64,000 nucleotides of DNA from Blasia pusilla (taxonomy: Eukaryota). The stretch is from assembly GCA_050084515.1 (NCBI GenBank), contig CM114271.1:35712001-35776000 (forward strand). Reading direction: 5' to 3'. The notes under the pieces are model-generated. The model saw only the letters and a program-made list of their open reading frames with translations, did not search any database and was not told where the DNA came from. This document shows positions 24,286 to 64,000 of this stretch, in pieces. Every line of letters begins with the position of its first letter. Positions within the stretch are counted from its first letter, which is position 1. Both the position numbers and the translations under genes were made by a program.

Positions 24286-24297
24286 GCTCTGATACCA
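24286..24297 (-). promoter_or_regulatory. Primer-binding site (tRNA-iMet)
   Basis: Minus strand reads TGGTATCAGAGC one base after the 5' LTR, the canonical plant iMet primer-binding site. Confidence 0.93.
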
Positions 24298-24298
24298 T

Positions 24299-24651
24299 TG
24301 TAACTCTCCAGCTCACGGAACCACTCTAGAGTTGCTCAAAGGTAAAATGCCCTCAAGGCCTCTCCTCTTCATTTATATACTTAGAGATAGGTACAATGAA
24401 GATAAATTAGCTCTACCTATCCTTATGCCACATGTCCTACTCTCATAGCATGAGAGAATCTCCTTTGGAGTCTAATGTCCCAACCTTATCTTCCTCAACC
24501 TCATCCTTATCTCCCTTTTCACCAACCTATGGCCCCACTCTCATCTTTATCTCATGTATCTTGTCTTTTCTCTTTTTGGTTGATTCTTTCCCACTTATGC
24601 GCTTCATGTCATAGATTCTAACTTAACTATGACTAACAAAGGATGGTTACA
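24299..24651 (-). repeat. 5' LTR of the chromovirus
   Basis: Direct repeat of 18714-19066, followed on the + strand by the TSD GATAT. Confidence 0.97.
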
Positions 24652-32002: not shown

Positions 32003-32770
32003 TGTCGTGCGCACATATATCGCTACACAACATACATCGCTATCATCGAACACACACACAAACACACACGATCCCATGCTAACTCATGACATCCATACAC
32101 AGAGGCAAGAAGTACCAAAATATCTCAAATAAAGTAAGTTCCAATCTCTCTCTTCACCATCTCACACCATAGCTCTCAAAGGTGTGCACTCTCTCTCATG
32201 TCAAACCAAACCCATTCTCTTAATGAGAGGTTTGGGTTACATTCACAAGGCAAGGGACCATAGCTCCGCCGCCTTATGCCAAGAAGTTCAAAAAAGAAAG
32301 AATGAGCTCTCAAGCTCTCTCTCTTGGAGGTATACCCCCTTCCCTCTCCCAAGCCCTCTCAACGGTAACCTATGCTCGTAGGTCACCTCCTTGATTCTTG
32401 ACCTGCTGTAGCGGGTTAAGGGCCACTTCCCAAAGTGTAAATTCAACTATCCCCAACATGGAAACTTACCCGAAATAGTAAATTTCTCTATATGGCTCCA
32501 AATGAGCCGAAACGAAAGGGGAACCTGCTCTCTCAGGTTTCCCGGGGCCTCAACAGGTCATCCTCAACCTCATGGCCCTGTCCTCCACTACTCGTGTAGA
32601 CGCTCTGCTAGATCCCACCGATCTATCCTAGCAGTCGTGACAGCTGTCGTGGGCATACACATTGCTACACAACATACATCGTTGTCATCGAACACATAGA
32701 CAAACACACACGATCCCATGCTAACTCATGGCATCCATATACAGAGGCGAGAAGTACCCAAATATCTCCA
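32003..32770 (-). repeat. 3' terminal a-b-a repeat block of copy 1
   Basis: a = 32003-~32127 and a' = 32645-~32770 (~125 bp direct repeats) enclose b = ~32130-32642. The b/a' junction on the + strand reads GTGACA-gc-TGTCGTG. Confidence 0.9.
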
Positions 32771-32958
32771 ATCGCACCCCTAGCTGGTGGTTAGGTCCCT
32801 CTAACTCCAGATAGCCATCTATCCCTACCTACCACGACATACATCTCTAGGACGCTAAGAGCACAAAGGCCGGGTGCTCGTATGGCCCCATCGTTAGTCG
32901 CCTTCATCTCATCCATGTCCCAAAAAAAGTCAAAATCGAAACCTACATAGTATCTCCT

Positions 32959-34212
32959 CTATGTACATGTGGGACATATCCATCGTCCCCGAGGAACCCT
33001 AGTGAGAGATGGCGTCAGACATGCCATATGCAAACCTCTTGAACATCCATCACAGACTAGCATCGTGGCCGTACTACGAGCAGAACCACACAACATACAA
33101 CGCAAGCCTGCAGGAACTACTGTTGAGCTCGGATCTAATGTACCATTAATGTTAGGAAGGTGACATAGCGCATAATTACGCACATGGTCCTTCCATACCA
33201 TACCATACCATCGTGTCCCTCCAGCAAGAGAACACCGGATGGCAAAACGTCACGCATTCTCAAGAGTGCGCCCTGCAGTCACATCCAACATTGTTGGTGC
33301 CGTCTGCTGCAAGTAGACATAATCTCCCTGATGAAACCTCCGAATAGTTGGTCGATAACCACCACCCCAAATAGTCGCATACCTCAACGTATCCCAATAC
33401 TGTGGAATCGCCAAGTTCTCGAACGCCATGGGCATCACTCTCTGAAACAACTCAGCCCTCTTAGAACATGCTCGCATCCATACATCTGGGTCATCAAGGT
33501 CCAGCACCTCACCAGCATCTCGACAAATGGCCTTAGGTAAATCTGGCTCTCGGCCATAAAGTAGCAAGTACGGTGAAAAAGACGCTAAGGATGCTTGCCT
33601 GCTGAATCTGTATCCCATCGCCAACCACGGCAACTAGAGGTCACAATCTCCTAGGTGACCTCTCTGCAAGCCATACTTGCGTAAACCCCTCTTCACCGTC
33701 TACAAAACTCTCTCCGCTAATCCATCTGCCTTGGGATGATCTCGCGAAGTCGTGCAGTGGTCGATCAACACCTAATCACACAAGGCCTAGAACTCACCGC
33801 GAAACTCGGTACCCTGGTCTGTCAACACCTTAGTCGGTGCGCCATAATGACTCAGCACTATGTCAAGGAAGGCATAAGCTACTCCCTCACTCGCTTTTTC
33901 AGGAAATGCAACCAACTCGATCCACTTCGAGAAGTGCTCGACCATTACCAACACATAACGACTCTGACCCTTTGTCAAAGGCAAAGGTCTTGCAAAATCC
34001 AAACTCCATCTATATCCTAAGCCCATGATCGATAATGAATGCAACTGTGGAGTCGGAGCATTGAACGATGCTCGGACCCGATCACACACCATGCACCTGG
34101 CAACAAGCTGCTGAACGTCACTCTGCATGCCTCGCCACCAATACTGAATCTGGAGCAAGCTGTACATCCGCTTCACCCCAAAGTGACCCAACTCCTCATG
34201 GGCATGCTGCAC
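32959..34212 (-). pseudogene. DDE integrase with C-terminal PHD finger (copy 1)
   Basis: HHCC domain HAHEELGHFG...CMVC; core WSLDF, VEHFSKW, LTDQGTEF; SPYLLLYGREP; then C4HC3 PHD CMLC..MLVCDGCSRGLHMACLTPSLTRVPRGRWICPTC*. Confidence 0.92.
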
Positions 34213-34215
34213 TAG

Positions 34216-35900
34216 TCATGCTCTCTGCAAAGGATGCGGCACTACGCATACTCTACCATCCTCCCAAACCCTCAAAACATGTGTCCCCTCCCAACGGAAC
34301 CGTCTGGCCCGTTGTAGGATCCGATCCCGCTCTCTAGCACACACAGTGCTCGCAACACCGCCAGTACGAAGGTACTCCAAGACAACTCCATCATCATGAA
34401 TATATTGACCACCTGTCGTCTCCTCACTAGCCTCAGGATCCAAGGACTCTCCACTAGACCTTGCCATCAAAGTCTCCACACTCTGGCTCTCCATAGCCAA
34501 CATGCCTAAATAGGCTGACGCGTGCCATCCTGACAGTGACTCCTCATCACTCTCTCCATGCCATTGAGCTCCAATTGCATCTCGCTGACTCGGGCATGGG
34601 TTACCACTCAGCCCATGTGCATCCTGGTTGAGCGTCCCAGGTATATGTACCACCTGAAAATCGTACTCCTGTAGCAACAGAGCCCATCTCGGAAGCTTCC
34701 TTGTAAGCTTGTCGGACTCCACCAACCACTTCAGTGGTTGATGATCAGTGATGATGGTAAAGGGGTTGCCAATTAAGTAACACCTGAAATGCGCGACAGC
34801 CCATACTGCAGCCAAGCACTCACCCTCATACGAGCTGTACTTTGCCTCTACAGCATTGTTCGAGCGGCTAGCGTAAGCCACCACAAACTCTCTACCCTCA
34901 TCATCATGCTGGGTGAGCACCGCTCCAAGCCCCAACATGCTCCAATCTCTGTGCAACTGGAAAGGACGCCCCCTGATCGCTCTCCTCAAGATGGGCACAG
35001 ACGTCAACCTATCCTTGAGCAACTGAAATGCTCGCTCCAACTCATCCCCTCAGTGCCACTCGTGATCCACCTTGGTCAGCAAGGTTAGCGGCTTCGAAAT
35101 CAAATGAATCCCTTGACGTACCACCTATGGAAGTTCGCCAATCCTATGAATGCACGAACACGGCTCACATCTATAGGGCGTGGAATGCGTGAAATAGCCT
35201 CTACCTTCGTATGTTGAACACCAAGGCCCCCTGGGTATATCGTATGACCCAAGTACTCAATCTAGTCATAGAAGAACTTGCACTTTCCTGGATGTAGCTT
35301 CAGCCCATGTAATTGAAATGGTCGAAACACCTCCTCTAGATGTCGCTTATGCTCCTCAACCGTGGCGCTAAAGACTACGATGTCATCAATTTAACACCTA
35401 GCAAAATCAAGAGCAGCCAAGATTCTATCCATGACCCTCTGAAACTCAGCCGGGGCGTTCTTTAACCCAAATGGTAAGAACCGCCACTCGTACAAACAAT
35501 CCTTCCCGTGAGGATTGATGCCCCGAAATGCCGTCTTCTGCCTGTCCTCCAATTTGATAGGCAGCTGATGATATCCGGCTTGCAAATCCGATGAATTGAA
35601 GACCTTTGCGTGACCAATCGCATCAAAGATCTCTTTAGGGGTGGGCATGGCATACCTATCGGACTTCATCTGCCGATTGATAGGTCGGTAATCCCCACAC
35701 ATCCGCCTATCCGTCCAGTTTCCATGCACATCCTTCTTGGCGGGCATGACAGTGGTAGATACATGCTACCCATGCGACATCTCCACTAGTCCTGCTCCGA
35801 CCAACTCCTTGCTCCTACTCTGAATCAGAGCCCTCTCCATATCACTGTACATGTAGGATCGTCGGAAGATCGGCGTATCACTTGATTACTCAATGTGGAT
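34216..35900 (-). pseudogene. Reverse transcriptase and RNase H (copy 1)
   Basis: RT RMCGDYRPIN, DLQAGYHQ, LPFGLKNAPAEFQR, C*IDD; RNase H HRDWSMLGLGAVL, YSSYEGECLA, ITDHQPL. Confidence 0.93.
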
Positions 35901-36369
35901 CCCCGGTCCCTTCAGCGTATCCAAATCCTCCATGCTAAATGCAAAGCAGCTCCTATAACTCTGAGGAACTGATGTAACTGGCACCGCTCTCCTCCTGTCA
36001 ACTTAGGGCCCATATCTGGCTCCCAAGTCTCCATCGTGACTAAGGTAGGACTCTCCAGCGCGGATATCGGTGGTTGCTATGGTGCAACCCCATCTTGAAC
36101 AACAACACTTGGCCGCGCTCCTGCAGCCAACTACAAACTCTGGTCTCCTCCACGTGCAGTGCCCGGAACCACGCTCGATGCTGTGGCTATCATCTCCTGG
36201 AGTACCTGCAAAACATTCCAAGAAGTCCAAGAGTGTCTCTCTCGATCTCCCCTGGTGTGTAGATCTCCTCGGGTCTCGCCCCCAGCCACTGCCTCCACCG
36301 TCTCAGTAGGCATGGGGCTCACCAACGCAACCGCTGAAATCTGTCACGATCTCATAAGGCGCTGCTCAA

Positions 36370-37490
36370 CCACTCCCAAGCTGAGGATTCATGTCAAATA
36401 GTTTAGGTCCATCGCTTGACCGAAGACATGGCGTCGTGATGCCTCTGACACTGACGATACTACCGTCACTCCTTTGGGAAATCCCATCGCTCGCTCTCTC
36501 TCTCGTTGGCATTGGGCTCCACCAACCGCTGAACCTGGTCATCCCAAACAAAGCCAGGACCGGCCTCCTTGTATGCATAGGAAGCGGGAAAACTCACAAA
36601 CGTGGGCAAGGCTTCCCGCGGCTTGCCTACCCTATTGACCACAATCAACGGTGGTCAATCATCGTGCCTCATTGCTTGTGATTGACGACTTGGATCCAGA
36701 ATGGAATCCACTAACAAATCGAAGTGGCGCTCCACTCTTGCATATGCCCTCCGTAACACCGCATGGGGCACCAAGTTGGTCCACCATAGACGCGGGCAAT
36801 GGGCTCTAGAACCTACACTCGCTGCATCCTAGAACACATCCAAGAACATCCAAGAACATCCAAGATCCAAGAACATCCAAGAACATCCAAGAACATCCAT
36901 CCAAGAACATCCAAGAACATCCATCCAAGAACATCCAAGAACATCCAAGAACATTCATCCAAGAACATCCAAGAACATTCATCCAAGAACAATGCAGGGC
37001 CGATCCAGGCACGCACATGATGAGCACTCGTCACCACCCATGACATGGAATCTCCTAAGATCGGCACATTCTCCAGAATGTAGGCTGGAGAACGAGACTG
37101 GAGCTCTTGCAACTACCGTAAGACCGTCAACATCTCCCAAATAACCTGGACCGAGTGTCACCCAACCCGTTGCCTCGTCCATCACTCGATTGGCCTTGAC
37201 ATGGCCAACCGACAAAGGCCAAATCAATGGTCCCTACCCGCTCTAAGTCCTGCGCCCCCAACAACGAAATATCCCTCGGTAGGAAACTTTGGTACCCCTG
37301 TACCGCGGACACAAACAATAAGTCGGAAAAATATAAGCATAACTACGCCACATGTCGTAGTAAGACGCGCCTCGCAACATCATCACTCTCCACATACAGG
37401 TACTGCTGCACTCGCACTCTTGCCTGCAAAACAACAGCTAACCCGGTGCTAATCCCTCCTTAGAGATCTAACACTCGAATACCCTCCTCC
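36370..37490 (-). pseudogene. DNMT3-like C5-cytosine DNA methyltransferase domain within pol (copy 1)
   Basis: Motif I GIRVLDL*GGISTG; II YLYVE; III DI; IV IDLAFVGWPCQGQS; VI YILENV; VIII RAHCPRLWWTNL; IX-X region EPNANERE... Confidence 0.92.
36825..36990. repeat. CATCCAAGAA tandem-repeat expansion inside the DNMT domain
   Basis: Imperfect array of a 10-bp unit with 14-bp variants. Copies 2 and 3 have a single unit at the equivalent site. Confidence 0.95.
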
Positions 37491-37840: not shown

Positions 37841-38230
37841 TCAAACGTGTAATAAGCTAAGGCACCCATCACCTGACTGCCATCCTGGTCTGTAGGACGC
37901 CGAATCCTCCCAGGAATCGAGGGAAAACCCCATTGGATATAACACTACTCCACCAACCAAGACGTTGTAGGACTTTGCATGAGTCACTATCGCCTTGGCT
38001 CGCACCATAGACTCATCTGTAGGATGTCCCGGGCGAATCCTCACCACGACCTCCTTTCGGGTGATATACTGTGTGGTACTCGCTCCACCCAAGGATGTCT
38101 GTATCCGGAATGGACAACGCTCCACATCGGCTCTCGTTAAGCCCAATCCTTTGAATGACACTTTCCCCAACATCAGGGGTTGCACTCTTGAATCCAACAA
38201 GACACGCTACGGACTAAAAGCTCTATCTCC
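37841..38230 (-). pseudogene. Retropepsin aspartic protease (copy 1)
   Basis: RVLLDSRVQPLMLG (decayed LLDSGA motif) and the C-terminal YNVLVGG motif. Confidence 0.8.
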
Positions 38231-38933: not shown

Positions 38934-40293
38934 CTATAGCTGTTGTATCTGAGCAGCCATCCCAGCCTCACGTGCGGCGTCTCCCTCGACGCGTCTAGGT
39001 GGTGGGACTCTACCTCCTCCACGGGTAGCTCCACCACCCTGTCGGACAACTCCAGCTCCGTGTCCCCCGAAGAGACCACCCGGTGCACGACCTCTGGGCA
39101 CACTCGGACCGGCTACTCGCTCCGGTGCCCTCTCTGGCCCTCGGTCCGGACGTAACTCAAGATGTAAACTGAAACACCTAGCGCGTGTATGACCATACCT
39201 CTGACAATAGTCACACTGATAACCTCCTGGTGCAGCACCATCTCCTCCTCCATGCTGAGGCATACGTTCATGACCCTGACGAGTGCAATCGCGCTGATGA
39301 TAGGCTCCACCACATGACCAACAAGTAATAGTAGGCGGCTGCTGCTGAGCCGTATATGAAGGCGCAGGTCTCTGTGGCACGGCCTCTTGGTATCCTCTCT
39401 GAGCTCGTGGTGCCACAATTGACCTATCTCGGAGTCCACGTTGCTGTACAGGTGGAACAGCCAATCGTGACTGCTCTCGCCCAGAACCCATGGTGGCTAC
39501 GCTCTCCTCCGCCATGTTGTGCTCAATGTTCTCGGCGGTCCTAAAAAAATCTCTTAACGTAGGGGAGGTGTTCATAAGAAGCACCCCCTCCCGCACCCGT
39601 GTCCGTAGGGTCCGATCCAACATCGCATACCATGACTGGATAGCCTGAGCCTCTGTCACCTTGAGTGACGTTGATCAACGGGCGCAAGCGAGTGTAAGCC
39701 TCACGCAAACTCTCACTTGGGCGCCTCTGGAAGTCGTGGATGCTCCTCAAATTCTCCGTTCGTACCCCTTGGTATCTCGCCCTCAACTCAACAAAGAACT
39801 CAACCACAGGGTTGAACGTGGGACAAACCCGACTAGACGGTGCAACTACTCCAGTGCGAGTGACTCCTCCTAAAACGTCACTAGTGGAAGAGGAAGTAGC
39901 CTCTCCTGACTCCTCCTCCTTATATGGGAACGGCTCCGTCCATAACACATAATGTGGGTCATAGTAGAGCCTCCACGCCTCGATCTCACGTGCATATCTC
40001 TGAGAGAACTCATGGTAATCGTCCATGGGCGCCCCCTCTAAATGCTAGAACATACCGTTCCATGCTGTAAACGGGTTGAATTCTCTAGAGTTCCTGGCTC
40101 GTTGGGAGTCGCACCAACTCCTAAACTCTGCTATGAAATCGTGCAACTCAATCGTGCATACTGCACCTGAAAACCTGCGCGGTCCTCTATCCCGGTTGTC
40201 CATCTCGTACGCCCAACTGGTAGGACCACTCACAATGTGTGGTGATGTGCTCACAAACTCCTCTACACCCTCCCCCTTGTCTGACGATGACAC
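38934..40293 (-). pseudogene. gag: gag with two zinc knuckles (copy 1)
   Basis: FQRRPSESLREAYTRL (gag-like); knuckles CWSCGGAYHQRDC and CDYCQRYGHTRARC; frameshifted. Confidence 0.8.
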
Positions 40294-41249
40294 AGAAGGA
40301 GGTCGAGGTGGTCCCTCACGTAGAGACCCTTAGAACCTCGCCCCACTCCGCGTAAAACCTCTAGAGCTACTCTCGAGTTCACCACCTCGCCTCTCAAAGT
40401 CCCGAATGGACGTCGTGATGACCCTCGTGCCCCTCTCACCCGATCACTCTCAACCTCGCGAGTAATCCCTCAATCAATCATCCCAAACATGCGGCACTTG
40501 ACCAGACTATCTTCTCATCGACAACCTACCCTCAACTCCGGACATCCCACACAGGTCTATGTCCCCTAAACCACATACATGAATGATGCTCTCAGCATCC
40601 ATACAACCCAATATCCCTAAATAAACTACCAAAATCCCAAAATCCCTCACACGTGCAGGGTAAAGGACCAGAATGGGTAACCTGAACACATGTCAATGTC
40701 GCTCCTCAGCAACTGCAAATCTTGATCCCAGCTTGGTCGTGAAGACAACTCCTCCAAATCAGCAAGTCGTACTCCTCTCGTATTGACACTGCTCAACCTC
40801 CTTGATGTGCGGTGCAAGTCAAGCGGTCCGGTGCAGCATTGGTGGCACGAAACGACTACGAACACCACGGCACTCGAGAATAGGGTGCGGCACTTGGCGG
40901 CATACCCTCCTCAATCAGCAATTCACACGCTCTGCTCCTTAGTGAAGGAGCGGTTCCGCAATTAAGACCGTGCGATACGGCGTAGCAATCCGTGGCGCAT
41001 TGCGGCTACGGGCGTCACTGCACGGTACTCGATCGTCGTCGAGCGGATACCAATCACAACATAACAACATGAAAAGCTCAAACACCATAATTGGAGGTCA
41101 TCTGCCATCACTGGTTGATGACAAAACTGTGACGACGGTGGTAGCCAAAATAAAGTACGTGGTGGCGACGCAAGTCAAAGAATCAACGAACGTTGTGGAA
41201 GACCCTCCATTCCGTAATGGTAGCAAGGGCAACCAAAGGGTGGACAACG

Positions 41250-41927: not shown

Positions 41928-42443
41928 TGTAAAGTAAGATCCAATCTCTCTCTATACCATCTCACACCATAGCTCTCAAAGGTGTGCACTCTCTCTCATG
42001 TCGAACCAAAACCACTCTCCTAATGAGAGGCTTGGATTACACTCACAAGGCAAGGGACGATAACTCCGCCGCCTTATGCCAAGAGGTTCAACAAAGAGAG
42101 AATGAGCTCTCAAGCTCTCTCTCTTGGAGGTATACCCCCTTCCCTCTCCGAAGCCCTCTCAACGGTAACTCTATGCTCGTAGGTCACCTCCTTGGCTCTT
42201 GACCTGCTGTAGCGGGTCAAGGGCCACTTCCAAAAGTGGAAAGTCAACTATCCCCAACATGGAAACTTACCCAAAATAATAAGTTTCTCTATATGGCTCC
42301 AAATGAGCCGAAACGAAAGGGAAACCTGCTCTCTCAGGTTTTCCGGGGCCTCAACAGGTCATTCTTGACCTCCTGGGCCTATCCTCCACTACTTGTGCAC
42401 ACACTCTGTTAGATCCTACCGATCTATCCTAACAGTCGTGACA
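41928..42443 (-). repeat. 5' terminal repeat (b only) of copy 1
   Basis: Direct repeat of ~32130-32642 with about 40 differences in ~515 bp by eye (~92%). No copy of segment a and no TGG primer site follow it. Confidence 0.92.
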
Positions 42444-44203
42444 GAGTTCCCGTGGCCCGCATCCGAGCCTTTGTCATTCAATTTGTAGACCGCATCGGGC
42501 GTGTTAGGTCCCGCTTCATGGAGGAGTCCTACCACGTCGCAGACGAGTTGGGCCTTGATCGGGCCGGCATGCATGCTCTAACGTCCACATCGAGCCCGCA
42601 AGACCCCTATTGGAAGCCCAAAAAGGGCCGCACGCATGGCTTGCACCCAACATCCAATCCGTGATCGCCATATGGCACCTTGCAAGTGTTTTTGTAGACT
42701 TGCATCCAACTTGCCAATCAAAGATTGCCACTTGGTGCCTTGCAAGTCATCCCCTTGACCCACGTCCTACAAAACCCGTGAGGAAACGTGGTGAAGTTTC
42801 ATTGTTGGAGGCTAAAAGAAATTCAACTCCTCCCTTTCTAACTCCCAAAATGGGTTTTAAACGAAAATCCATAAGGAATTGAAAGGGCTCACAAGTGGAG
42901 CCCAAAATGCTCTTAAGTGGATGAATAGGCCTAATTAACTCATATTTTCACCATTTTCACCATTTCTTTGAGAGCACAGTATTTTTGGATTCGGCCCTAA
43001 ATTTAATTCGTGCCTTGAGAGCTTAGGGCTTTCAACATTGCTAGGAATTTTGGGGAAATCTATTGCGTGCCTTGGGGTCCGGGATAGTTAGATTTTGTTT
43101 ATGACCAACTTGGATATTTGTGCTCCTTGTTGTGTCTCAAACAAAGTCTAATTTATTCCACATTAGGTGAGAGATTGTCGATGTGGAATTCTTTTGTGTC
43201 AGTGTCTCTTTTTTGGTGATTTTGAGAACTCCAATTTATGGTCTCGAGTTTAGATTTGTTTCATTGGCTTTCCTTACCACATTGAGGATATGGAGGTGGT
43301 CAAGGAAACTTATCTGAGCGCGCATATATTCCCTCTAAGTGCTTAACCCTAAACCTAGATTCCACATTCTATCAATTACGTTTTTCATCTTTTTAGTACT
43401 ACCTAATCTCCACCTTTAGATTTCTTTGGTTGGTTGTGTAGGAAATCTTCCTATCTTCTTTCTTTGAGCTATATGTTTAGTGGGGTTGAGTCATTGGAGG
43501 TAAGAGATAACCAAATGGAGTCGAGTGATAGTTTCAAAAGGTAAAAACTCAATTCCAGGATTGACTTTAACATGGCTACAAGAGAGGCATGGATCGACAA
43601 GTTTTTCTAGCTTACATTAGAGAAGAGATGATACTATATTTCGAGGGGTATGGATGGTTTCCATGACTACACCTTGGAATCGCAAAGATTTTCTATGAGA
43701 GTTTCAGAGTCAAGAAACTAGGAATTCAAGGCCAAAGAGGCCCAAAGGTTAAGTGCATTTTGTGCCCAACAAGGTGTTCACTTGGAGAAAGCATATGTTG
43801 ATCTTAAGACATACAAGAAGGAGAAGCCCATTGTTGCTAATTAAGACAACTCTACTAGAAAGATTTTGTGCAAAGTTAAAATACTCAACATTTTTTTAAG
43901 GGATATAATAGTTCAGTGGAGAGGATATTCGTAGTTCCACGTGGATGTATGTGGATTTTTAACCAGGATACAATAATAGGACATAATCTTGAGGATACTT
44001 TGGGCTTAGGTTGACATGGAATCGTGTGCAATTGTAAAGTAAACCAAACCCTTGGCTTTAGTGAAGATATTTAAATTACTATTGCATGAAGGTGTTTAAG
44101 GAAGCATTTTGATTATATTTAAGACAATCAATGATGCGTGAGGAGATTTTTGCTATCTTACATCAAGGGATGGTTGAATTATGGTTCTGTGGTGGTTGAA
44201 TTA

Positions 44204-46070
44204 TGACCCAGGTACTCAATCTGGTGGTAGAAGATTTGCACTTGCCTGAAGGTAGCTTCAGCCCATGTAATTGAAATCGTCGGAACACCTCCTCTAGATG
44301 TCGCTCATGCTCCTCAACCGTGGCGCTAAAGACTATGATGCCATCAATTTAATACCTAGCAAAATCCAGACCTGCCAAGATTCTATCCATCACCCTATGA
44401 AACTCATCCGGTGCGTTCTTTAACCAAAATGGTAAGAACCGCCACTGGTACAAGCAATCCTTCCCATGAGGATTGATGCCCCAAAATGCCGTCTTCTGCC
44501 TATCAGCAACTGATGGTATCCGGCTCGAAGATCTAACAAACTGAAGACCTTTGCATGCCCAATAGCATCAAAGATCTTCTCAAGAGTGGATATGACATAC
44601 CTATCGGACTTCGTCTGCCAATTGATAGGTCAATTATCTCCACACATCCGCCTATCCGTCCAATTGCCATGCATATCCTTCTTGACGGGCATGATAGTGG
44701 CAGATGCATACTCTCCATGGGACATCTCCACTAGTCCTGCGCCAACCAAGTCCTAGCTCCTACTCTGAATCAGAGCCCTGTCCATGTCACTATACCTGTA
44801 GGGTTGTTGGAAGAACGGCGTGTCACTCAACAACTCAATGCGGATCTCTCGACCCTTCAGCGTACCCAAATCCTGCATACTAAATGCAAAATAGCTCCTA
44901 TAACTCCTAAGGAATTGGTATATCCGGCGCCGCTCTCCTTGTGTCAACTTAGGGCCCATATCTGGCTCCCAAGTCTCCATCGTGACTACAGTAGGACTCT
45001 CCGGTGTGGGTGTCGATGGTTGCTATGGTGCAACCCCATCTCGGATAACAAAACTCGACTGCTCCCCTGCAGCCAATTGCAAAATCGGATCTCTATGTGT
45101 AGTACCCGGAACCACGCTCAATGTTGTGGCTACCATCTCCTCGCGTATGTGCAAAACATCTCACGAAGTCCAAGGATGTATCTCCCAATCACCCTCGGTG
45201 TGTCGATCTCCTCGAGTCTTGCCCCAAGCCACTGCCTCAACCATCTCGGTAGGCATGGGGCTCATCAATGCAACTGCTATGATCTGTCGTATCCTCAAAC
45301 GAGGCTACTCAGCTACTCCTAAGCTGAAAATCCATGTCAAGCAGTTCAAGTCCATCGCGTGACCCAAGACATGACGGTGATGCCTCTGATAGTGACGGTA
45401 CTGCCGTCACTCCTGTGGGGAATCCCATCGCTCGCTCTCGCTCATCGGCGTTGGGCTCCACCAACCTCTGTACTTGGTCATCCCAAACCAAGCCAGGTCT
45501 GCCTCCTAGACTACATAGGAAGCGGGAAAACTCACCAATGTGGGAAAGACTGCTCGTGGCATGCCAATCTTGTTGACCACAGTCAACGACGGTCGATCAT
45601 CTAGCGTCACTGCCTGTGATCGACGGCCCGGATCCAATATAGAATCCACCAGAAAATCGGAGGGACACTCCACTCTTGCATATGCCCTCTGCAACACCTC
45701 GTGTGGTACCAAGTTGATCCACCAACGACGCGGGCGATGTGCTCGTGAACCCACACTCGCCGCATCCAACAAAACTTTTGGGCCGATCCATGCGCGCACC
45801 TGATATGCACTCGTCATAACACGGGACCTCGAATCGCCCAAAATTGGTACATTCTCCAGAATGTATGATGGAGGACGAGATTGATGCTCCTACAAGTGTC
45901 GCAAGATCCGCATCATCTCCCAAAACAACCTGGACCAAGAGTAAGCTAATCCGCTACCCCGTCTAGCACTCGACTGGCCGTGACATGGCCAACCAGCAAT
46001 GACCAAGACTATGGTCCCTACTTGATCCAAGTCCTGCGCCTCCAACAATGAAATGTCCCTTGATAGGATA
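44204..46070 (-). mobile_element. Internal fragment of the DNMT-gypsy family, copy 2 (DNMT motifs III-X, linker, RT)
   Basis: DISLLEAQDLDQVGTIVLVIAGWPCHGQS, YILENV, RAHRPRRWWINL, EPNADERERAMGFPTGVT, then RT. Collinear with ~35240-37280; truncated at both ends. Confidence 0.92.
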
Positions 46071-53949: not shown

Positions 53950-54699
53950 TGTTGTGCGCACACACATTGCTCCACAACATTCATCGTTGTCACCAAACAC
54001 ACACACAAACACAAACGATCCCATGCTAATTCATGGCATCCAAACACGAGACAAGAAGTACCAAAATATCTACAATTCAATCAAGATCCAATCTCTCTCA
54101 ACACCATAGCTCTCAAATGTGTGCATTCTCACATGTCTCTCTTAATGTAAAACCAAACCCTCTCTCTTAATGAGAGGCTTGGTTTACACACACAAGGCAA
54201 GCAAGACCATAGCTCAACGGCCTCTTGCAAAGAGGTTCAACAAAGAGAGAATGAGCTCTTAAGCCTCCCCTCGAGGTATACCCCTCCCCTCTCCCAAGCT
54301 CTCTCCATGGTAACCTATGCTCCCAAGTCATCTCCTTGGCTCTTGACCTAATATAGGAGGTCAAGGGACACTTCCCAAAATAGAAATTCAACCATATACT
54401 TAAAATGGTATCTACCAAAAATAGTAAGTTCCTCAATATGACTCCAAATGAACCGAAACAAAGGGGTTTCCCGGGGCCGCAATAGGTCATCATCGACCTT
54501 CTGAGCCTGTCCTCCACTACTTGCAAAGGCGCTCGACTAGATCTCACCGATCTATCCTAAAAGATGTGACAGTTGTCGTGCACATACATATCGCTATATA
54601 ACATACATCGTTGTCACCAAACTTACACACAAACACGCACAATCCCATGCTAACTTATGGCATCCAAACAACGAGACAAGAAGTACCAAAATATCTACA
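53950..54699 (-). repeat. 3' terminal a-b-a repeat block of copy 3
   Basis: a = 53950-54074, b = ~54075-54571, 2-bp spacer GT, a' = 54574-54699. In element orientation a' is preceded by CTAGGGGGGCGAT (54700-54712, polypurine-tract-like) and starts TGTAGATAT. Confidence 0.9.
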
Positions 54700-57600
54700 A
54701 TCGCCCCCCTAGAACTGGCGGGGTGGTTGGGTCCCTCCAACTCCAGATAGCCATCTATCCCTACCTACCATGACATACATCTCTCAAACGCTAAAAGCAA
54801 GAAGGTCCGGTGCTCATGTGGCCCCATCGTTAGTCGTCTTCTTGTCATCCATATTACAGACACAAGTCGGAATGTAGAACTACCTACGCTATGTACATCT
54901 CGGACACATCCATCATCCTTGAGGAACCCTAGTGAGAGGTGGCGTCAAACATGCCATATGCCATCCTCTCGAACATCCATCACACACTAGCATAGTGGCT
55001 GCACCGCGGGAAGAACCACACAACATACATCGCAAGCCTATAGGAACTACTACTAAGCTTGGATCAATTGTACTATCAATGTTCGGAAGGTGATAAGGCG
55101 CATAGTTACGCACATGGTCTTTTCAAACCATACCATTGCGTCCCTCCAATAAGAGAACCCTTGATGGCAAAATCTCACACACTCTCAAGATGGTGCGCCC
55201 TACAGTCATATCCAATGTCGTGGGTGCCGTCTGCTGCAAGTAGACATAGTCTCCTTGATGAAACCTCCGGATAATAGGTCGATAACCACCTCCCCTTATA
55301 GTCGCATACCTCAATGTATCTCAATGTTGCGCAATCGCCAAGTTCTCAAACACCATGGGCATCACTGTCCAAAACAATTCAGCCCTCTAAGAACATACTC
55401 GCATTCATACATCAAGGTCATCAAGGTTCAACATCTTACCAGCATTTGGACGAATTGCTGTAGGTAAATCTGGCTCTCGGCCATACAAAAGCAAGTACAG
55501 TGAGAAAGATGCTAAGGATTCATGCTTGCTGAATCTGTATCCCATCGCCAACCACGGCAACTAGAGGTCCCAATCTCCTAGGTGACCTCTCTGCAAGCCA
55601 TACTTGTATAGTCCTCTCTTCAATGTGTGCACAACCCGCTCCGCTAGTCCATCCGCTCAGGATGATCTCGCGAAGTAGTCTGGTGGTCGATTAGTGCTTG
55701 AAACTCCCTGCGGAACTCTGTACCTTGGTGTGTCAACACCTCAACTTGTGCGCCGTAATGACTCAGCACTCGATCTAGGAAGGCATACGCTACTCCCTCA
55801 ATCGCTTTGTTAGGCAATGCAACCAACTCTACCCACTTCGAGAAGTGCTGGACCGTCACCAACACAAAACGACTATGGCACTCCATCAAAGGTAAAGGTC
55901 CTACAAAATCCAAACTCCATCTATAACCTAAATCCATGATTGGAAGTGGATGCAACTATGGATTGCGAGCATTGAACGATGCCCCAACTCGATTACACAC
56001 CATGCATATGATAACAAGCTGTTGAACATCAGTCTGCATGCCTCGCCACCAATATTGAATCTGGAGCAAGATGTACGTTCGCTTCACTCCAAAATGACCC
56101 AACTCCTCGTGGGCATGACGCACCAAACGTGCTTTCTGCAAAGGATGAGGCACTATACGCACTCTACCATCCTCCCATACTCGTAACACATGTGTCCCCT
56201 CCCACCGAAACTATCTGGCTCGTTGTAGGATCCGATCCTGCTCTCTACCACCCACAATGCACGCGACGCTGCCATTACGCAAGTACTCCAAGACCACTGC
56301 ATCGTCGTGAATATCTCGGCCACTTGTCGTCTCCTCACCGGCCTCTGGATCTAGGACTCTCCATCAGACCTCGCCATCAAAGTCTCAAAAATTTGGCTCT
56401 CCATAGCCAACAAGCCCAAATAGGCTAACATGTGCCATCCAAGCACCAACTCCTCATCACTCTCACCATGCCAACAAGCTCCACTCGCATCTCGCAGACT
56501 CGAGCATGGGTTATAGCTCAAACCATCTACATCTTGGTTGAGCGTCCCAAGTTTATGCACTATCTGGAAGTCATACTCCTGCAATAAAAGAGCCCATCTC
56601 GCAAGCTTCCCTATTAGCTTGTTAGACTCCATCAACCACTTAAGTGGCCGATGATCAATAATGATGGTAAAGGGATTTTCGAATAGATAACATCTGAAAT
56701 ATGCAACAACCCACGCTGCAGCCAAGCACTCATTCTCATATGAGCTATACTTCGCCTTTGCAGCGTTGTTCAAGCGACTAGCTTAAGCCACCACGAACTC
56801 TCTACCATCATCTTCATGTTGGGTAAGCAAGACTCCAAGTCCCAACATGCTCCAATCAGTATGCAACTGGAAAGGACGCCCCCTTATTGGTCTCCTCAAT
56901 ATGAACGCAGACGTCAATCTATCCTTGAGGATCTAAAATACTCTCTCTTGTTCATCTCCCCAGTGCCACTCTTGATCCACCTTGGTCAGCAAGGTCAGCG
57001 GCTTCACAATTGAGCTGAAATCCTTGTAGGGCGTGGAATGCATGAAATAGCCTCCACCTTCATCTGCTGCACACCAAGGCCACCTGGGTATATCGTATGA
57101 CCCAAGTACTCAATCTAGTCGTAGAAGAACTTGCACTTGCCTGGATTTAGCTTCATGCTATGTAATTGCAATCATCAAAACACCTCCTCCAGATGTCGAT
57201 CATGCTCCTCAACCGTGACGCTGAAGACTATGATGTCATCAATATAACACCTAGCAAAATCCAGACCTGCCAAGATCCTATCCATCACCCTTTGAAACTC
57301 AGCCGGGGCGTTCTTTAACCCAAATGGTAAGAACCGCCACTAGTACAAGCAATCCTTCCCGTAAGGATCGATGCCCCAAAATGCCGTCTTCTGCCTGTCG
57401 GCACTTGATGGTATCCGGCTCAAAGATCTAACGAACTAAAGACCTTTGCATGCCCAATAGCATCAAAGATCTCCTCACGAGTGGGCATGGCATACCTATT
57501 GGACTTTGTCTGCCAATTGATAATTTGGTAATCTTCACACATCCGCCTATCCTTCCAGTTGCCATGTACATCCTTCTTGGCGGGCATGACAGTGGAAGAT

Positions 57601-58214
57601 GCATACTCTCCATGCAACATCTCTACTTGTCCTGCGCCAACCAAGTCTTGGCTCCTACTATGAATCAGAGCCCTTTCCATGTCACTATATCTATAAGGTC
57701 ATCGGAAGATCGGCGTGTCACTCGACAACTCAATGCGGATCCCTCGACCCTTCAGCGTACCCAAATCTTGTATACTAAATGCAAAACAGCTCCTATAACT
57801 CCTAAGGAACTAGTGTATCCGGTGCCGCTCTCCTCTTGTCAAATTAGGGCCCATATGTGGCTCCCAAGTCTCCATCGTGACTACGGTAGGACTCTCTGAT
57901 GCGGGTGTTAGTGGTTGTTATGGTGCAACCCCTTCTCGGACAACAAAACTCGACTGCTCCCCTGTAGTCAACTGCAAAATCGGATCACCATTTGCAGTAT
58001 CCAGAACCACACTCGATGTTGTGACTACCATCTCCCGACATACCTGCAAAACATCCAAAGAAGTCCAAGTTTGTCTCTCCCGATCACCCTTGGTATGTCA
58101 ATCTCCCCGGGTCTCGCCCCGAGCCACTGTCTCAACCGTCTCGGTAGTTATGGGGCTCACCAATCCAACTACTGTGATCTATTGCATCCTCCAATGATGT
58201 TGCTCATTTACTCC

Positions 58215-59170
58215 TAAGCTAAAAATCCATGTTAAGCAGTTCAGGTCCATCGCTTGACCCAAGACATGACGTCATGATGCCTCTGATAGTTACGGTACTG
58301 CCGTAACTCTTGTGGGGAATCCCATTGCTCGCTCTCGCATCGGTGTTGGGCTCCACCAACCTCTGTACTTGGTAATCCCAAACCAAGTGAGGTCCAGCTT
58401 CCTTGAATGCATAAGAAGCGGGAAAACGCACTAATGTGGGAAACGCTGCTCGTGGCATGCCAATCCTATTGACCATAGTCAACGGTCGTCGATCATCGTG
58501 CCTCATTGCCTATAATCGACGGCCCAATTCCAATATAGAATCCGCCGATAAATCGGAGGGAGGCTCCACTCTCACATAAGCCCTCCGCAACACCTCATGT
58601 GGCACTAATTAAGTTGGTCCACCAAAGACGCGGGCAATGTGCTCGTGAACCTATACTCGCCGCATCCAAAAAAATTGTCGGGCCAATCCATGCGCATACC
58701 TGATGTGCACTTGTCACCACACGGGACCTTGAATCGCCCAAAATTGGTACATTCTCTAGAATATATGGTGGAGGACGAGACTGATGATCTTGCAAGTGTC
58801 GCAAGATCCACATCATCTCCCAAAACAATCTGGACTGAGAGTCAGCTAATCCGCTACCCCGTCCAACACTGGATTGGCCCTGACATGGTAAACCAGCAAT
58901 GACCAAGTCAATGGTCCCTACCCGCTCCAAGTCTTGCGCCCCCGACAATGAAATGTCCCTTAGTAGGAAATTTTGGTAATTGTGAATGACGGACGCACAC
59001 AATAAATCGGGAAAACGGAGGCGTAAGTGCGCCACATAGTGAAGTGAAGCGCACCTCCCAACATCATCAATCTCCACAAACAGGTACTATTGCACGCACA
59101 CTCCAACGTGCAAAAGAGCAACTAACCTAGTATTAATCCCTCCAAAGAGCTCCAACACCCGAATATCCTT
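58215..59170 (-). pseudogene. DNMT3-like C5-cytosine methyltransferase domain (copy 3)
   Basis: DIRVLELFGGINT (motif I intact), YLFVEIDD, DISLSGAQDLERVGTIDLVIAGLPCQGQS, SRLFWEMM, YILENV, DAASIGSRAHCPRLWWTNL. Confidence 0.93.
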
Positions 59171-59286
59171 CTCTCGGATGCACCAGACAATCGGGGTGGT
59201 GTCCAAAGGGATCATAGTAGCACTCGTGCCTACTTGGGATTCCTCTGACTCCTCACAATCTGGTGCAAACGTCTTGCTCTAGGCGG

Positions 59287-61584
59287 TGTCATATAATAAA
59301 ATCAGCGAGTGTATAAACTCCTTCTTCATTAAGTGTTAGATAGAGTTTTATTAGTATTAAGTATATAGCTTAAAAAAAGAAAATTCTCATATTTATACCT
59401 CTTCATGGTGCCTCTTTTATGCGGGCCCAACTTTAGGAAAAGAGATAATAAATAAAAGATGACTTTATAAAAGTAAAGTAGTGAGGCTAGTGATTTAATG
59501 AAAAACAAAAGTAGTATTGGTTGGTGGCTAAGATAGTTGGGGTAATTTGAAAAATATCAAGTGGATAAAAGAGGATATTTTGGAAGAGATAAAAAGAAAT
59601 CTACTTGTATCAAAATATGGTTGGCTAAGCCTTGAGAGGAAGTCATGTGGCACAAGACAAGATTAGCTCTATTTCGTATCCTTGTGGATCCCTTGTAAGT
59701 ATATAAAAAGGAGGGATCTTCAAAGGTTCATCACCTTCTATTTCACATCTTGGGTCGCTCGTATGACTCTTGAGGGTATGGCTTTGGGATTGCTTGCTCT
59801 TCCAATGAGAGTGAATCATCCCTCTTGGGAGAGTAACTTGACCATGGTCTATTCTTCGAGAAGTTTCTAGAGTGTGGTGTGTGCGGAGATAAGAGGCTTG
59901 TCACCTTAGAAGAGTTTAGTCATAGTAAAATAGTGAATGTTTTGGCTTGTTATTTTCCCCATGAGAATGGATTAACCCTCTTGGGAGAATAATTCCGCCA
60001 AAGCCCATTCTTGAGGAGAGTAGAGAATTTCTGTCAAGCATGAATAAGGGTGGAGCATGAGTTGTGCACGATTTTCCTTTCCTCAATCCTTACCATGTAA
60101 AGGTACTGTTTGTAGATAGACACTGGTTCACTCGTTTTTTTAGTTTATCACTTTGGGGAGGCCTTCATGAACCAGGTCATACAATCTCCAACTCCGGTGA
60201 TTCTTCCTATCATCACATATGGAAGCACATGGGATTTTACTTTGTATGTCCTTATATAGCAATCCTGTCGCGACCCTCATAACCAAACAACACCAAATAG
60301 GCGCCAAGCAAAACATCAGAACTCAATTGAACTCATGTTGCGAGGTTTGCGCTTTGGAAAGGTCTCTTGGAAAAGTCCAAGAGATGAAACGCAGAACAAA
60401 GTTTTGCGTTTCATGCGTTAGTGGTCACGACCAAGAAAACTAGACCAAACGCGAACCAAGACTTCAGATGAGTTGAGTCTTGGGAGGTTGGTTTCCAAAG
60501 AGGTGAGAACCAATTTGGAACACAACTAGCGTTTGGGAGAATTTGACTGTTTTTCGGACCATAACGTTAAGCTCCAAGATGCATTTGGAACAAATAATAG
60601 GCGTTGGAAAGCTTATTTCAAGACACTTCCAACTCACTAAAGATCTCAACAAACGCATAATTACATGCTGAGATATTGGCCGAAAACGACTATGAGAACA
60701 ATCGGGTTGAGGGCCAATTGGAGAGGCCCGGGTGTCTTTCCCTAAATGTAGGGGGCCCACGGAGATCCCCAGAAGTACTAGTAAGGGAGGAGTCTCTCTG
60801 AGATGTCTCGGAACACGAATCCCCACTTTGGGCGCCAAACGGCATTTCAGAGGCACGGGATGGAACGGGAGTTTGGCGTTGGAACTCGAAACCCAAACCT
60901 GAACCAAGGGAGTGGACTTTGTACGCCACACTTGGATTCCAACTTGAGATTCACTTTGTGCGAGTCTTGGTGAGGAACTCATTGGATGTCCATTGGACAG
61001 TTGGAACCACAAGCGCAAAACGCCGTTTCTGGTTCATGAACCGACCAGAAAGTCTGTCCCAAGTCTTTCAAGACTTGCCCGTGTTGTAAACCGCGAAACT
61101 AGGAAGGTTGAGCTTGATGAGAGTCCAAGGCAAGAACTCATATAGTTAGCCCGCTGATTGATCCAAGACCCAACTAACCAGAGTGCGTGTTTGGATGCAG
61201 ATCAGTGTTGAGAGTGTGACCTACTGAACGCACGCTTCCGCAATAAACAAGATTAACGTTCAAGGACAATAGGCGCCTGACAGATCCATAGACGTCAATA
61301 GGCCTACTCAAGTAGGTTTTAACACTAGTTATGCTATCTTCCTCATTTACAAAAGTAAAGTAGTTTATAGGGATTTTATAGTTAGAGATTTTGGGGTTAG
61401 ATGTCACGAAGAAGTGATCGCCTTGACACTTCCATTTGTGATACCTATCGTGAGAGAATGGAGAGTATACATAATAATTTTGTATTGAGAAAGGAGAACT
61501 TCATAGAAAGTTCACCTTGCATTGACCATGTCTGCCACAGCTAGAAGGTCTGCCCTTACTCGAAGAAAGTCTCTCGACACGACA
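59287..61584. mobile_element. ~2.3-kb insertion (probable solo LTR of another family) nested in copy 3
   Basis: Starts TGTCAT and ends ACGACA. Removing it restores collinearity with copy 1 (..GCGG|TCT.CAC.TGCTC..). The flanks GCGG/ACGA may be a decayed TSD. Confidence 0.8.
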
Positions 61585-64000
61585 ACGATCTGCACATGCT
61601 CAGTGGTTAAGCGTTCAAGCTCCTCAATCGAGCCCCAAAGCGGCACCTCTCCTCCAAGGACTGATGCGGCTACCATGATACTCCTCTCCATAGAAATTTC
61701 AGGAACGGGAGTATCCTTTGCATACACATGTCCCTCAATCAAATCGTTAGGCCAAGTGATTGCGGTGCTAAATGCTGCTAAGGTCGCCATCTCCCCTAGC
61801 CGTCGCTCGATCACTAAACCTGTGAATCGAACAGGTAATGAGCTAAGGCGCCCATCATTTGATTGCTATCCTAGTCTGTAGGACGGTGACTCCTCCTAGT
61901 AATCCAAGGGAAACCCCATCGAGTATAACACTGCTCCACCAACCAAGACGTTGTAGGACTTTGCATCAGTCACTATTGCTTTGGCTCGCACCACGGACTC
62001 ATCTGTAGGATGTCCCGGGCGAATCCTCACCACAACCTCATATCGGGTGATATACTATGTGATACTTACTCCACCCAAGGATGTTTGTATCCGAAATCAA
62101 CAACGCTCTACATCGACTCTCATCAAGCCCAATCCTCTTACTAATGCTTTCCCCAACATCAGGGGTTGCGCTCATGAATCCAACAAGACGCGTTACGAAC
62201 TAAAAGCTCTACCTTGGGGACTCACCAAGTGGAAGACCTCACCCCGGCTATCCAGCAATACAACACCAAGAGAAGCCATGGCACGCTCTATCGCGGGTTT
62301 AACGGGCATCTCCTCCATCTTAGCAGCCGCAGCTTGCCATGAATATGACGTGGACGGCATGAGCATCCGTTCCAAGGGCAGGTCCATCACCTCCTGTGCA
62401 ATCACCTCTGAACGTGATGCAGGAACTCCAACTCCATGCTCACATAGCGTAGCGGCCAGTCGGAACACCTCCACAGCCGTACCTCCCAATGTCATAACAT
62501 CGGAAGCATAAAATAGCGGAGCACGGTACACCATCGTGGCCGCCCCCAACATCGTACTCGACACATCCTCCTTGTGAGCATCAGCAATCGGAGTCGTCGC
62601 ACTTGATTATCCCATTGCCCTCCGCGCCTTTGCGCCTCCACACCAATAACATCACCAACTCTTTGGGAACTCTGATCAAGATCCATCGATGGGGTCCTCA
62701 TTGCCTCCGACAACGTGAAAGATTGAGGAAGCCTGGTATATTTCTTGGCTTCTCCTTGCTGTGGATCCAACTCTCAAGCTGTTCCACGCGTCACAACTAT
62801 GGCACCCTCCATCTGGGCAACCCCGCACATCCAACCAGGATCCTCCATATCTCTGGTTGCTCCATATGATGTTCATGCCACGGATCCGGCATCGGGTAAC
62901 CTCAACGCCATAGCGGCAACCGCTCTTGTAGTCGCCAGATCGGAGACCATCCCCCTCACGCGGCGGCGTCTCCTCGACGCAGCGTCTAGGTGGTGGGACT
63001 CTACCTCCTCCACGGGTAGCTCCACCACCCTGTCGGGAAACTCGAGCTCCTTGTCCCCCAGCAAGACCACCCGGTGCACGACCTCTAGGCGCACTCGGAC
63101 CGGCTACTCGCTCTGGTGCCCTCTCTGGCCCTCGGTCCGGATGTAACTCAGGGTGTAAACTAAAACACCTGGCGCGTGTGTGACCATACCTCTAATAATA
63201 GTCATACTGATAACCTCTTGGTGGAGCACCATCTCCTCCTCCATGTTGAGGCACACGTCCATGACCCTGATGAGTGCAATCGTGCGGATGATGGGCTCCA
63301 CCACATAACCAACAAGTAATCGTAGGCCACTGCTGTTGAGCTGCATATGAAGGTGTAGGTCTCTGTGGCATGGCCTCCCCGTATCCTCCCTGAGCTCGGA
63401 GAGCCATAGTCAACCTATCTTGGAGTCCATGTTGCTACACTAATGGTGCAGGCAATCGTAACTGCTCTCGCCCAGAACCCATGGTGGCTACGTTCTCCTC
63501 TACCATGTTGCGCTCAATGTTCTTGATAGTCCTAAGAACATCTCTCAACCTAGGTGAGGTGTTCATAAGAAGTATCCCCTCTCGCACCCATGTTCGCAGA
63601 GTCCGATCCAACATCGCATACCATGATTGGATAGCCTGAGCCTTAGTCACCACTGAGTGACGTTGATCAACCGGCGCAAGCGAGTGTAAGCCTCACACAA
63701 ACTCTCACCTGGGCGCCTCTGGAAGTCGTGGATGCTCCGCAACTTCTCCGTTCGTATCCCCTGGTAGCTCGCCCTCAACTCAGCGAAGAACTCAACCACG
63801 GGGTTCAACCTGGGACGAACCCGACTGGAAAGTGCAACTGCTCCAATGCAAGTTACCCCTCTTAAAACATCACTGGTGGAAGAGGAAGTAGCCTCTCCTG
63901 ACTCCTCCTCCTCATCTGGGAACGGCTCCGTCCATGATACATAGTGTGGGTCATAGTAGAGTCGCCATGCCTCAATCTCTTGGGCATATCTATGGAAGAA

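Follow-up and report, generated by a model that had tools for sequence, protein, structure and literature searches.

A 64,000-nucleotide stretch of Blasia pusilla DNA (the window) carries copies of a retrotransposon whose pol had been read, from the letters alone, as ending in a C4HC3 PHD finger. The locus raises the question of what such a finger does at the end of an integrase: whether it directs integration to a chromatin state, whether it took the place of a chromodomain, and whether it is coupled to a methyltransferase domain in the same element. A loose C4HC3 PHD pattern was searched in six frames of the 64-kb window, and the finger of copy 1 was the sole match. This finger was complete (minus strand, 33099–32965) and was followed by one more residue and the stop at 32961–32959. 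It matched Pfam PF00628, well over the cut-off, with an E-value of 1.3e-12 and 47.9 bits (cut-off 24) across 47 of 47 profile positions, and the Cys4-His-Cys3 ligands and the Trp before the last pair were present. The finger of copy 3, lying within 55050–54892, had all eight zinc ligands and one premature TGA ahead of the last ligand pair; translated with X at its TGA, it gave a PHD match at E 8.4e-13. The pol of the element thus ends in a genuine PHD finger, and the sequence-only reading, which had placed one in copies 1 and 3 and proposed the Pfam search, was confirmed on this point. Both of these copies were dead. The integrase landmarks and the PHD of copy 1 shared one frame, and between them lay stops at 33789–33787 and 33252–33250 and a short off-frame stretch.

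Copy 1 spanned 42443–32003 on the minus strand (10,441 bases, about 10.4 kb), and its features are collected with those of the other copies in Table 1. The domain order was gag, protease, C5 methyltransferase, RT, RNase H, integrase, SH3-like barrel and PHD. The characters of Ty3/Gypsy elements were found, namely the order protease, RT, RNase H and DDE integrase, TG..CA ends, and a 4-bp target duplication, which in copy 1 lay at 31999–32002 and 42444–42447. Further four-base target duplications were found at L031/L032 (exact) and L050 (three of four bases matching). Troyka was considered as the family and rejected: it is described as having CG..CG ends, a 3-bp duplication and animal hosts only (PMC12440569, in the text available), against TG..CA and 4 bp here.

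Table 1. Positions in the window of the element copies and their features.
Feature	Position	Strand	Basis
Repeat A1, 5' end, begins TG; 92% to A2	41930..42443	-	self-comparison
Gag with zinc knuckles, broken	38934..40329 (approximate)	-	Pfam, landmarks
Aspartic protease	37930..38206 (approximate)	-	motif landmarks; Pfam protease match in relative P0507
C5 cytosine methyltransferase-like domain, broken	36450..37480 (approximate)	-	Pfam; nearest solved relatives DNMT3A/B
In-frame UAG then CAA CCA (CAR YYA readthrough context)	36071..36079	-	copy alignment
Reverse transcriptase, frameshifted	35050..36070 (approximate)	-	PF00078 on 35394-35765
RNase H and spacer before integrase	34216..35049	-	PF17917, PF17919
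Integrase zinc-binding domain and DDE core, broken by stops	33331..34215 (approximate)	-	PF17921, PF00665
Integrase C-terminal SH3-like barrel ending in CxxCH; broken in copy 1	33100..33330 (approximate)	-	L029 model, conservation
C4HC3 PHD finger and terminal stop of pol, copy 1	32959..33099	-	pattern scan, Pfam
Repeat B1, ends CA, two bases ahead of A2	32645..32772	-	self-comparison
Repeat A2	32131..32642	-	self-comparison
Repeat B2, 3' end, ends CA; 89% to B1	32003..32130	-	self-comparison
Copy 2 fragment: methyltransferase, leaky stop 45023-45025, part of RT; without PHD	44202..46068	-	
Copy 3, runs off window; about 2.3 kb interruption 59288-61585; TAA at leaky-stop site 57918-57920	53950..64000	-	
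Copy 3 PHD finger, one premature stop	54889..55050	-	pattern scan, Pfam

Self-comparison of copy 1 gave the repeat order A, coding region, B, A, B. Two complete LTRs were absent: the 5' end was A alone and the 3' end was B-A-B. Among 55 distinct 3' ends, 42 were B-A-B and 13 had a single B, and the split repeats (A at the 5' end, B-A-B at the 3' end) were also present in metagenomic relatives. With no B following the 5' repeat, ordinary tRNA priming next to U5 is impossible, and the B1-A2 junction may template both element ends. This junction (32636–32651) consisted of CA, two bases and TG, contained a 10-base palindrome and resembled a circle junction. Elsewhere in the window, a 174-base imperfect palindrome of MITE-like appearance lay at 5730–5903 and an inverted relic of repeat A, 72% alike, at 4653–4816. 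The interruption of copy 3 held a 189-codon frame at 60464–61033 without a Pfam match, and a short tandem-repeat expansion occurred in the methyltransferase of copy 1 at 36830–36980.

The family was abundant. In the assembly surveyed (390 Mb, 26 contigs), a 22-base element pattern had 1,566 matches, corresponding to more than 1,500 copies, and the family made up 12% of 20 fixed 10-kb regions (200 kb), mostly concentrated in a few of them. By this sample it covers roughly an eighth of the genome. Stranded RNA reads from two runs aligned to copy L031 along its full length, the finger included; the sense strand predominated by about 7:1 or more, and reads rose toward the 3' end (integrase, PHD and repeats). 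Most of these reads were less than 95% alike to L031 and are evidence for transcripts of the family, not of that copy.

The reading frame was followed in better-kept copies. In copy L029 the frame was open for 581 codons, beginning in the RNase H spacer, crossing the zinc finger and core of integrase and reaching the PHD, and 540 and 390 open codons ran into the PHD in L033 and L035. The finger is therefore in frame with integrase, as the sequence-only reading required, and the Chromo profile gave no match on these three copies. The stop after the PHD was common to 41 of 42 aligned copies. Conservation was investigated in 20 copies picked by a junction motif 3 kb from the finger. The whole finger was present in 15 of them; 107 of 120 ligand codons were kept, with all eight kept in only 4 of the 15. 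The pairwise dN/dS in this set was 0.41 for the finger and 0.28 for the integrase core. The finger is a constrained domain that is now decaying in dead copies.

Homologues gave the same picture. Of the long homologues, 47 of 48 carried PF00628; phmmer gave a PHD match for 86 of 100 shorter ones, and 117 of 148 had a strict C4HC3 arrangement, so that a family-wide loss of zinc ligands, which would have spoken against the earlier reading, did not occur. Named homologues with the finger came from Marchantia, Calypogeia, Sphagnum, Klebsormidium, Coleochaete, Hariotina, Monoraphidium and Tetraselmis, and the nearest to the integrase end were those of Marchantia (77–82%) and Calypogeia (75%). The finger occupied the same place in relatives from chlorophytes, Klebsormidium, Coleochaete, mosses and liverworts. 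A Closterium branch (P0402, P0412) appeared to be without it, which indicates that the finger is dispensable somewhere in the clade. Directly upstream, a CxxCH motif closed the integrase SH3-like barrel 17 residues ahead of the PHD region (L029, about 1700–1715). Its last Cys and His were invariant in 52 of 52 alignment rows, its spacing to the finger was nearly constant among homologues, and it is possibly an extra zinc site.

Some annotated genes were found to be parts of this element. The Marchantia gene models MARPO_0060s0038 and Mp_7g09570, called PHD proteins, are pieces of it, and a protein labelled as uncultured cyanobacterium clustered with the element and is probably plant DNA in a bin (P0142, P0143 and P0079 set). 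Some bryophyte annotations of "PHD genes" or "DNMT3 genes" should accordingly be treated with caution as fragments of this element.

The relation of the finger to the chromodomain was then considered. The neighbouring element at 18712–24651 was a young chromovirus, its two LTRs being 99.2% alike and its product 88% identical to a protein from Riccia, and it had SH3_Tf2-1 followed by Chromo (E 8.2e-15) at the matching place, in agreement with the earlier description. In an RT-RNase H tree of 168 rows, carriers of PHD and methyltransferase formed one group (SH-aLRT 99, 74 rows) and chromodomain carriers were separate (93–96), with many unlabelled Gypsy rows elsewhere. In a 50-row tree of the same region, the PHD lineage and the chromoviruses were separate groups with SH-aLRT of 98 and 99, neither nested in the other; three rows here (P0403, P0431, P0476) were called chromovirus by their place in the 168-row tree and not by a chromodomain. 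These were quick, midpoint-rooted trees without named references, and the long-branch warnings of the larger one concerned rows outside the question. A 320-residue RT-RNase H stretch was needed for entry, and 16 of the 120 proteins from the search that gave the Riccia match were put forward for it. Descent from a chromovirus was rejected, as the PHD lineage was nested within chromoviruses in neither tree. A sister relationship of the two was not rejected (AU p 0.35). The PHD elements form their own clade outside the chromoviruses, so the statement that the PHD replaces the chromodomain holds for position only and failed as history. On these trees the simplest reading is that the finger was gained independently of the chromovirus chromodomain; a reader swap in an ancestor shared with chromoviruses is conceivable.

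The residues of the finger were compared with those of known readers. The nearest solved sequences were the fingers of CHD4, PHF12, KDM5A/B PHD1, MOZ/DPF, BHC80, ATXR5, BAZ2 and UHRF1. A predicted model of L029 had as its top fold match the ATXR5 PHD with H3 (Z 9.6, rmsd 1.2, 51 aligned), followed by DPF2 (Z 8.6) and ORC1b PHD with unmodified H3 (Z 8.1). Aligned to KDM5B PHD1, whose residue roles in H3 contacts have been reported (PMC4225485, in the text available), the finger conserved L325, D328, P347, G349 and W351. The H3A1 pocket (L, P, G, W) and the H3R2 Asp of H3K4me0-type readers were thus present. The H3K4 contact D308 and the H3T3 contact E321 were Ala in the finger; their loss in KDM5B is given as lowering binding about 6- and 12-fold, respectively (PMC4225485). 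No acidic residue (Asp/Glu) was found at -1 to -4 of Cys1 in this family, and Asp/Glu stood three places ahead of Cys1 in 62 of the 117 strict fingers, including many algal and Klebsormidium-type members. The Ala residues at the D308 and E321 equivalents suggest that members of the liverwort and moss subgroup may discriminate poorly between K4 states. Among the same 117 fingers, Asp/Glu followed Cys3 in 115 and Trp/Phe preceded the last pair in 116. H3K4me3-type PHD fingers have a cage Trp two places before the His ligand; at this position Trp occurred in none of the 117 and Gly in 105.

A complex of the finger with host H3 residues 1–30 and zinc was also predicted, and gave weak support, scoring 0.41 against 0.01 for the best control. 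In calibration, 51 of 78 solved pairs and 2 of 108 mismatched ones reached the mark, and passes of 0.60 or below are more often wrong than right unless the pair is likely beforehand. The partner pLDDT was 53–54, and the runs shared at least 90% of contacts. Solved PHD-H3 complexes exist, so this pass probably reflects likeness to them. Taken together, residues and folds suggested that the finger most likely reads the free H3 N-terminus and not H3K4me3 or H3K9me. The earlier assignment to the H3-tail-binding type was upheld by the A1 and R2 pockets and the reader folds; the acidic K4 contact was missing.

The insertion sites of the copies were investigated through their 3' flanks. Fifty-eight flanks were collected, and three were internal junctions and were dropped, leaving 55. 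With a 200-kb pool for the repeat test, 25 of 55 flanks of the PHD family lay in repeats, against 63 of 320 control windows; the Fisher p of 1e-4 for this contrast treats windows as independent, and the region-bootstrap 95% range of the controls was 10–32%. Repeat-matching flanks were found in 7 of 14 of the youngest PHD copies and in 12 of 28 older ones. In the young chromovirus family the figure was 23 of 36, with 19 of 36 inside the PHD family and some flanks being two sides of one insertion. In a young Copia family (L185–L227) it was 1 of 13; these 13 remained from 40 stretches after four that could not be oriented and the internal ones were removed, and the family may itself favour genes. 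The median CWG observed/expected of flanks was 0.51 for the PHD family, 0.81 for controls and 1.57 for Copia, and flank CpG content did not differ between the PHD family and controls (p 0.53). The 13 Copia flanks were CpG-poor (0.29), CWG-rich and repeat-avoiding, as expected of gene bodies. The PHD copies were older, with a median B1/B2 identity of 92%, against about 99% for Copia and chromovirus copies. No clustering of copies was found along the first 20 Mb of contig 1, where spacing was random (CV 0.97, p 0.71). A weak target preference, A or T at +7, was seen in 50 of 55. In these small samples of differing age, the repeat-rich flanks fit targeting to silent chromatin, in line with the proposal that the finger directs integration to a chromatin state, and equally post-insertion selection.

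A stop codon was found directly after the methyltransferase. This TAG was the only shared internal stop in the whole frame, present in 40 of 42 aligned copies; the next commonest internal stop site was shared by 6 of 14 copies (43%). Of the first 100 of the 1,566 pattern matches, 92 had TAG and 4 had TAA at the site, the pattern fixing part of the context. Among 14 copies not chosen by motif, TAG CAA CCA occurred in 11. As background, CAR YYA followed 5 of 1,982 TAGs in the window. CAR YYA after UAG is the plant readthrough signal of TMV (PMC2754532, in the text available), and the sequence character of TMV-type (type I) readthrough, an in-frame UAG with CAR YYA, was present here. Three of 21 metagenomic loci (L236, L237, L241) had TAG with CAR YYA at -399 or -402 from the RT landmark, with differing flanking peptides; one had a one-base mismatch, one a stop without the context, four (L280, L284, L285, L307) were open across the site, and 12 were blocked by decay. 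The stop is not clade-wide, being absent from the sister subgroup formed by those four open loci and from Closterium members. The intact relative L237 had just two ORFs, 1369 and 1047 codons long, with a single TAG between them. The first Met of its second ORF lay about 117 codons in, inside RT, which speaks against re-initiation. The stop was also considered as C-to-T decay, and this was rejected: other sites had at most 43% stops against 40 of 42, and the context was kept in divergent relatives. A programmed frameshift between gag and protease was rejected as well; the apparent shared stop was an off-frame stretch of one reference and was gone with others. UAG-CAR-YYA is a conserved, predicted leaky stop, with gag-protease-DNMT before it and RT-integrase-PHD after it.

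The methyltransferase itself had been noted as a DNMT3-like domain, and a DNMT-like domain was verified by PF00145 in copies 1 (E 3.3e-4) and 3 (E 1.9e-11). The best solved matches of the catalytic domain were DNMT3A/B, and they were weak (E 7e-5); phage C5 methyltransferases scored as high (Atlas). Its position differed within the clade: in streptophyte-type members it preceded RT, and chlorophyte members had it within a single ORF, after RNase H and ahead of integrase. Closterium members had it in one ORF with RT, the finger being apparently absent. The methyltransferase moves within the clade and the finger stays on integrase, which argues that the finger serves integrase and not the methyltransferase. 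In four chlorophyte-type members (P0022, P0033, P0419, P0044) a Tudor-like domain followed the PHD (PF21743, E 4e-5 in P0044), and some chlorophyte-type tails showed a weak resemblance to N6-adenine methyltransferases, with PF02086 matches that fell below the cut-off (E 0.003 and 0.015). Those members possibly hold a C5 enzyme, PHD, Tudor-like domain and adenine enzyme in one ORF, like EpiLTRs but with a PHD. The Gypsy polyprotein P0497, just outside the clade, carried Dam ahead of RT, and its PHD separated RNase H from integrase, as is listed for Gypsy-7a_cRei.

The explanation considered best as a whole, and held to be somewhat probable, is that the PHD tethers integration to H3K4-unmethylated chromatin and that the leaky stop places the methyltransferase with Gag. 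Most ribosomes would stop at UAG and yield plentiful Gag-protease-methyltransferase, and readthrough by a minority would provide RT and integrase-PHD, after which protease would separate the domains of the polyprotein. The finger would bind the free H3 N-terminus via A1 and R2, with a preference for unmethylated K4 that is perhaps weak in this subgroup, and would tether the integration complex to nucleosomes outside H3K4-methylated active chromatin, in parallel with chromovirus chromodomains by an independent route. The methyltransferase, encoded on the Gag side of the stop, would be abundant in particles at Gag-like amounts, and the element's own cDNA would most likely be its substrate, without control by the finger. 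The leaky stop makes it testable why retrotransposons carry cytosine methyltransferases. A wider account is doubtful. It proposes that this Gypsy clade is old within the green lineage, stands parallel to the chromoviruses and selects its insertion sites by reading the unmodified H3 tail; in its land-plant and Coleochaete-like members, a TMV-type leaky stop would give methyltransferase at capsid level, and cDNA methylated in the particle would be delivered pre-marked to H3K4-unmethylated chromatin. Chlorophytes would have extended this to a reader, a Tudor-like domain and two methyltransferases in one ORF.

Other explanations can be weighed against the tether to H3K4-unmethylated chromatin. It is unlikely that the finger is a general nucleosome tether, which would bind H3 via A1 and R2 whatever the state of K4 and make integration on chromatin more efficient with no choice of state, the repeat-rich flanks being left by selection against genic insertions. 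The acidic K4 and T3 contacts missing from this subgroup, the random spacing of copies on contig 1 and the age of PHD-family copies are consistent with such a role, whereas the youngest copies were as biased as the older ones, in small numbers, and many algal and Klebsormidium-type members retain the acidic residue before Cys1. An improbable alternative is a non-histone role, in which the finger and CxxCH help to build the integration complex or hold proteins in it, or attach to a host factor or to nucleic acid. The CxxCH motif equals the finger in conservation and stands at a fixed spacing from it, which suggests one unit, and the complex score with H3 was weak; against this, the non-ligand positions that are conserved belong to the H3A1 and H3R2 pockets, and the nearest folds are histone readers.

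The sequence-only reading had gone further and proposed a reader and a writer in one polyprotein, like the ADD domain and methyltransferase of animal DNMT3. Under that explanation the readthrough product would stay joined, or its parts would reside together in the integration complex, and the finger would read H3K4me0 and direct or activate the methyltransferase on the new insertion and its flanks. The ADD domain reads H3K4me0, and the finger is of the H3K4me0-reading type; the two domains are kept together from chlorophytes to liverworts, the chlorophyte methyltransferase adjoins integrase in one ORF, and some moss-type loci are without the stop. In this family, however, the conserved stop and about 1,000 codons separate methyltransferase from finger, which makes an ADD-like fusion unlikely here. 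Retrotransposon polyproteins are normally cut into separate enzymes. An ADD consists of a GATA-like finger and an all-Cys PHD-like finger, and ligand 5 of the present finger is His, as in canonical C4HC3. No ADD or PWWP domain was found in the Pfam matches, and no ADD structure was among the 60 best PDB matches of the finger. The change of place of the methyltransferase in the clade, while the finger stays on integrase, and its retention without the finger in Closterium members also count against the coupling, as does the Klebsormidium domain alone, which gave no methylation in yeast, a result that its authors call inconclusive (PMC5890265, in the text available). The coupling was thus not borne out in this family and has little probability as an explanation; the arrangement of domains makes it more plausible for the chlorophyte relatives.

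PHD fingers on Gypsy polyproteins and elements that combine a DNMT with a reader are already in print, and PHD fingers are called common accessories of retrotransposons in the parts of the literature seen. A terminal PHD or a leaky stop in Gypsy-DNMT3 elements was not found described in the literature covered, with much subscription literature, Repbase and theses outside its scope. On that basis three features are apparently new: the terminal place of the PHD throughout the clade, its predicted liking for the unmodified tail and, most notably, a conserved leaky stop that keeps the methyltransferase on the Gag side.

The element belongs to a green-lineage Ty3/Gypsy clade with a C5 methyltransferase, and appears to be related to KnitGypsy-Dnmt3. 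In Klebsormidium, Gypsy elements have been described that have DIRS-like repeats and a DNMT3 domain located in the Pol ORF (de Mendoza et al. 2018, PMC5890265); the order A-coding-B-A-B is spelled out there for DIRS, and the Klebsormidium element is said to share the structure. The present element is similar in having a Gypsy pol frame with a DNMT3-like C5 methyltransferase domain and a DIRS-like arrangement of split repeats (42 of 55 3' ends). A Klebsormidium nitens protein (P0163), an integrase with the same terminal PHD, was a homologue at E 5e-59 (without its RT). That report concerns Klebsormidium only, whereas the clade here reaches chlorophytes and bryophytes, and its available text and supplements contain neither "PHD" (Fig. 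4c may show it) nor a mention of a leaky stop. EpiLTRs/DAM-LTRs likewise have a reader and a DNA methyltransferase in one LTR element (bioRxiv 10.64898/2026.05.21.726589), but their readers are chromodomains, their enzymes are DNMT4-related, and the PHD is undiscussed in the available text. Compared with DNMT3A/3B, the catalytic domain has its best solved matches there, while ADD and PWWP matches are absent and the reader is distant and past a stop. The finger resembles the unmodified-H3 readers ATXR5, ORC1b, KDM5A/B PHD1, BAZ2A/B and UHRF1 in nearest sequences or folds and in the A1 and R2 pockets, and this subgroup differs from them in having no acidic K4 contact.

Among Gypsy elements of Chlamydomonas, REM1 is reportedly cited beside Gypsy-7a_cRei. 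The latter is a Gypsy polyprotein with a PHD and an intergenic bias (Craig et al. 2023, PMC9940879); compared by description only, it has its PHD listed in the legend after RNase H and ahead of integrase, and no methyltransferase is named there. The chromoviruses are similar to the present element in placing a reader after the integrase SH3-like domain and, in this genome, in their repeat-rich flanks. Targeting by a chromovirus integrase is reportedly known for MAGGY, as cited in later papers. The element differs from chromoviruses in its reader fold, in the predicted mark and in its separate RT clade, and the neighbouring chromovirus was without split repeats, methyltransferase and leaky stop. 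Neumann et al. (2019, PMC6317226), in the text available, mention neither PHD nor methyltransferase domains. If the proposed role holds, plant Gypsy elements would have a second way, independent of the first, of choosing integration sites by reading histones.
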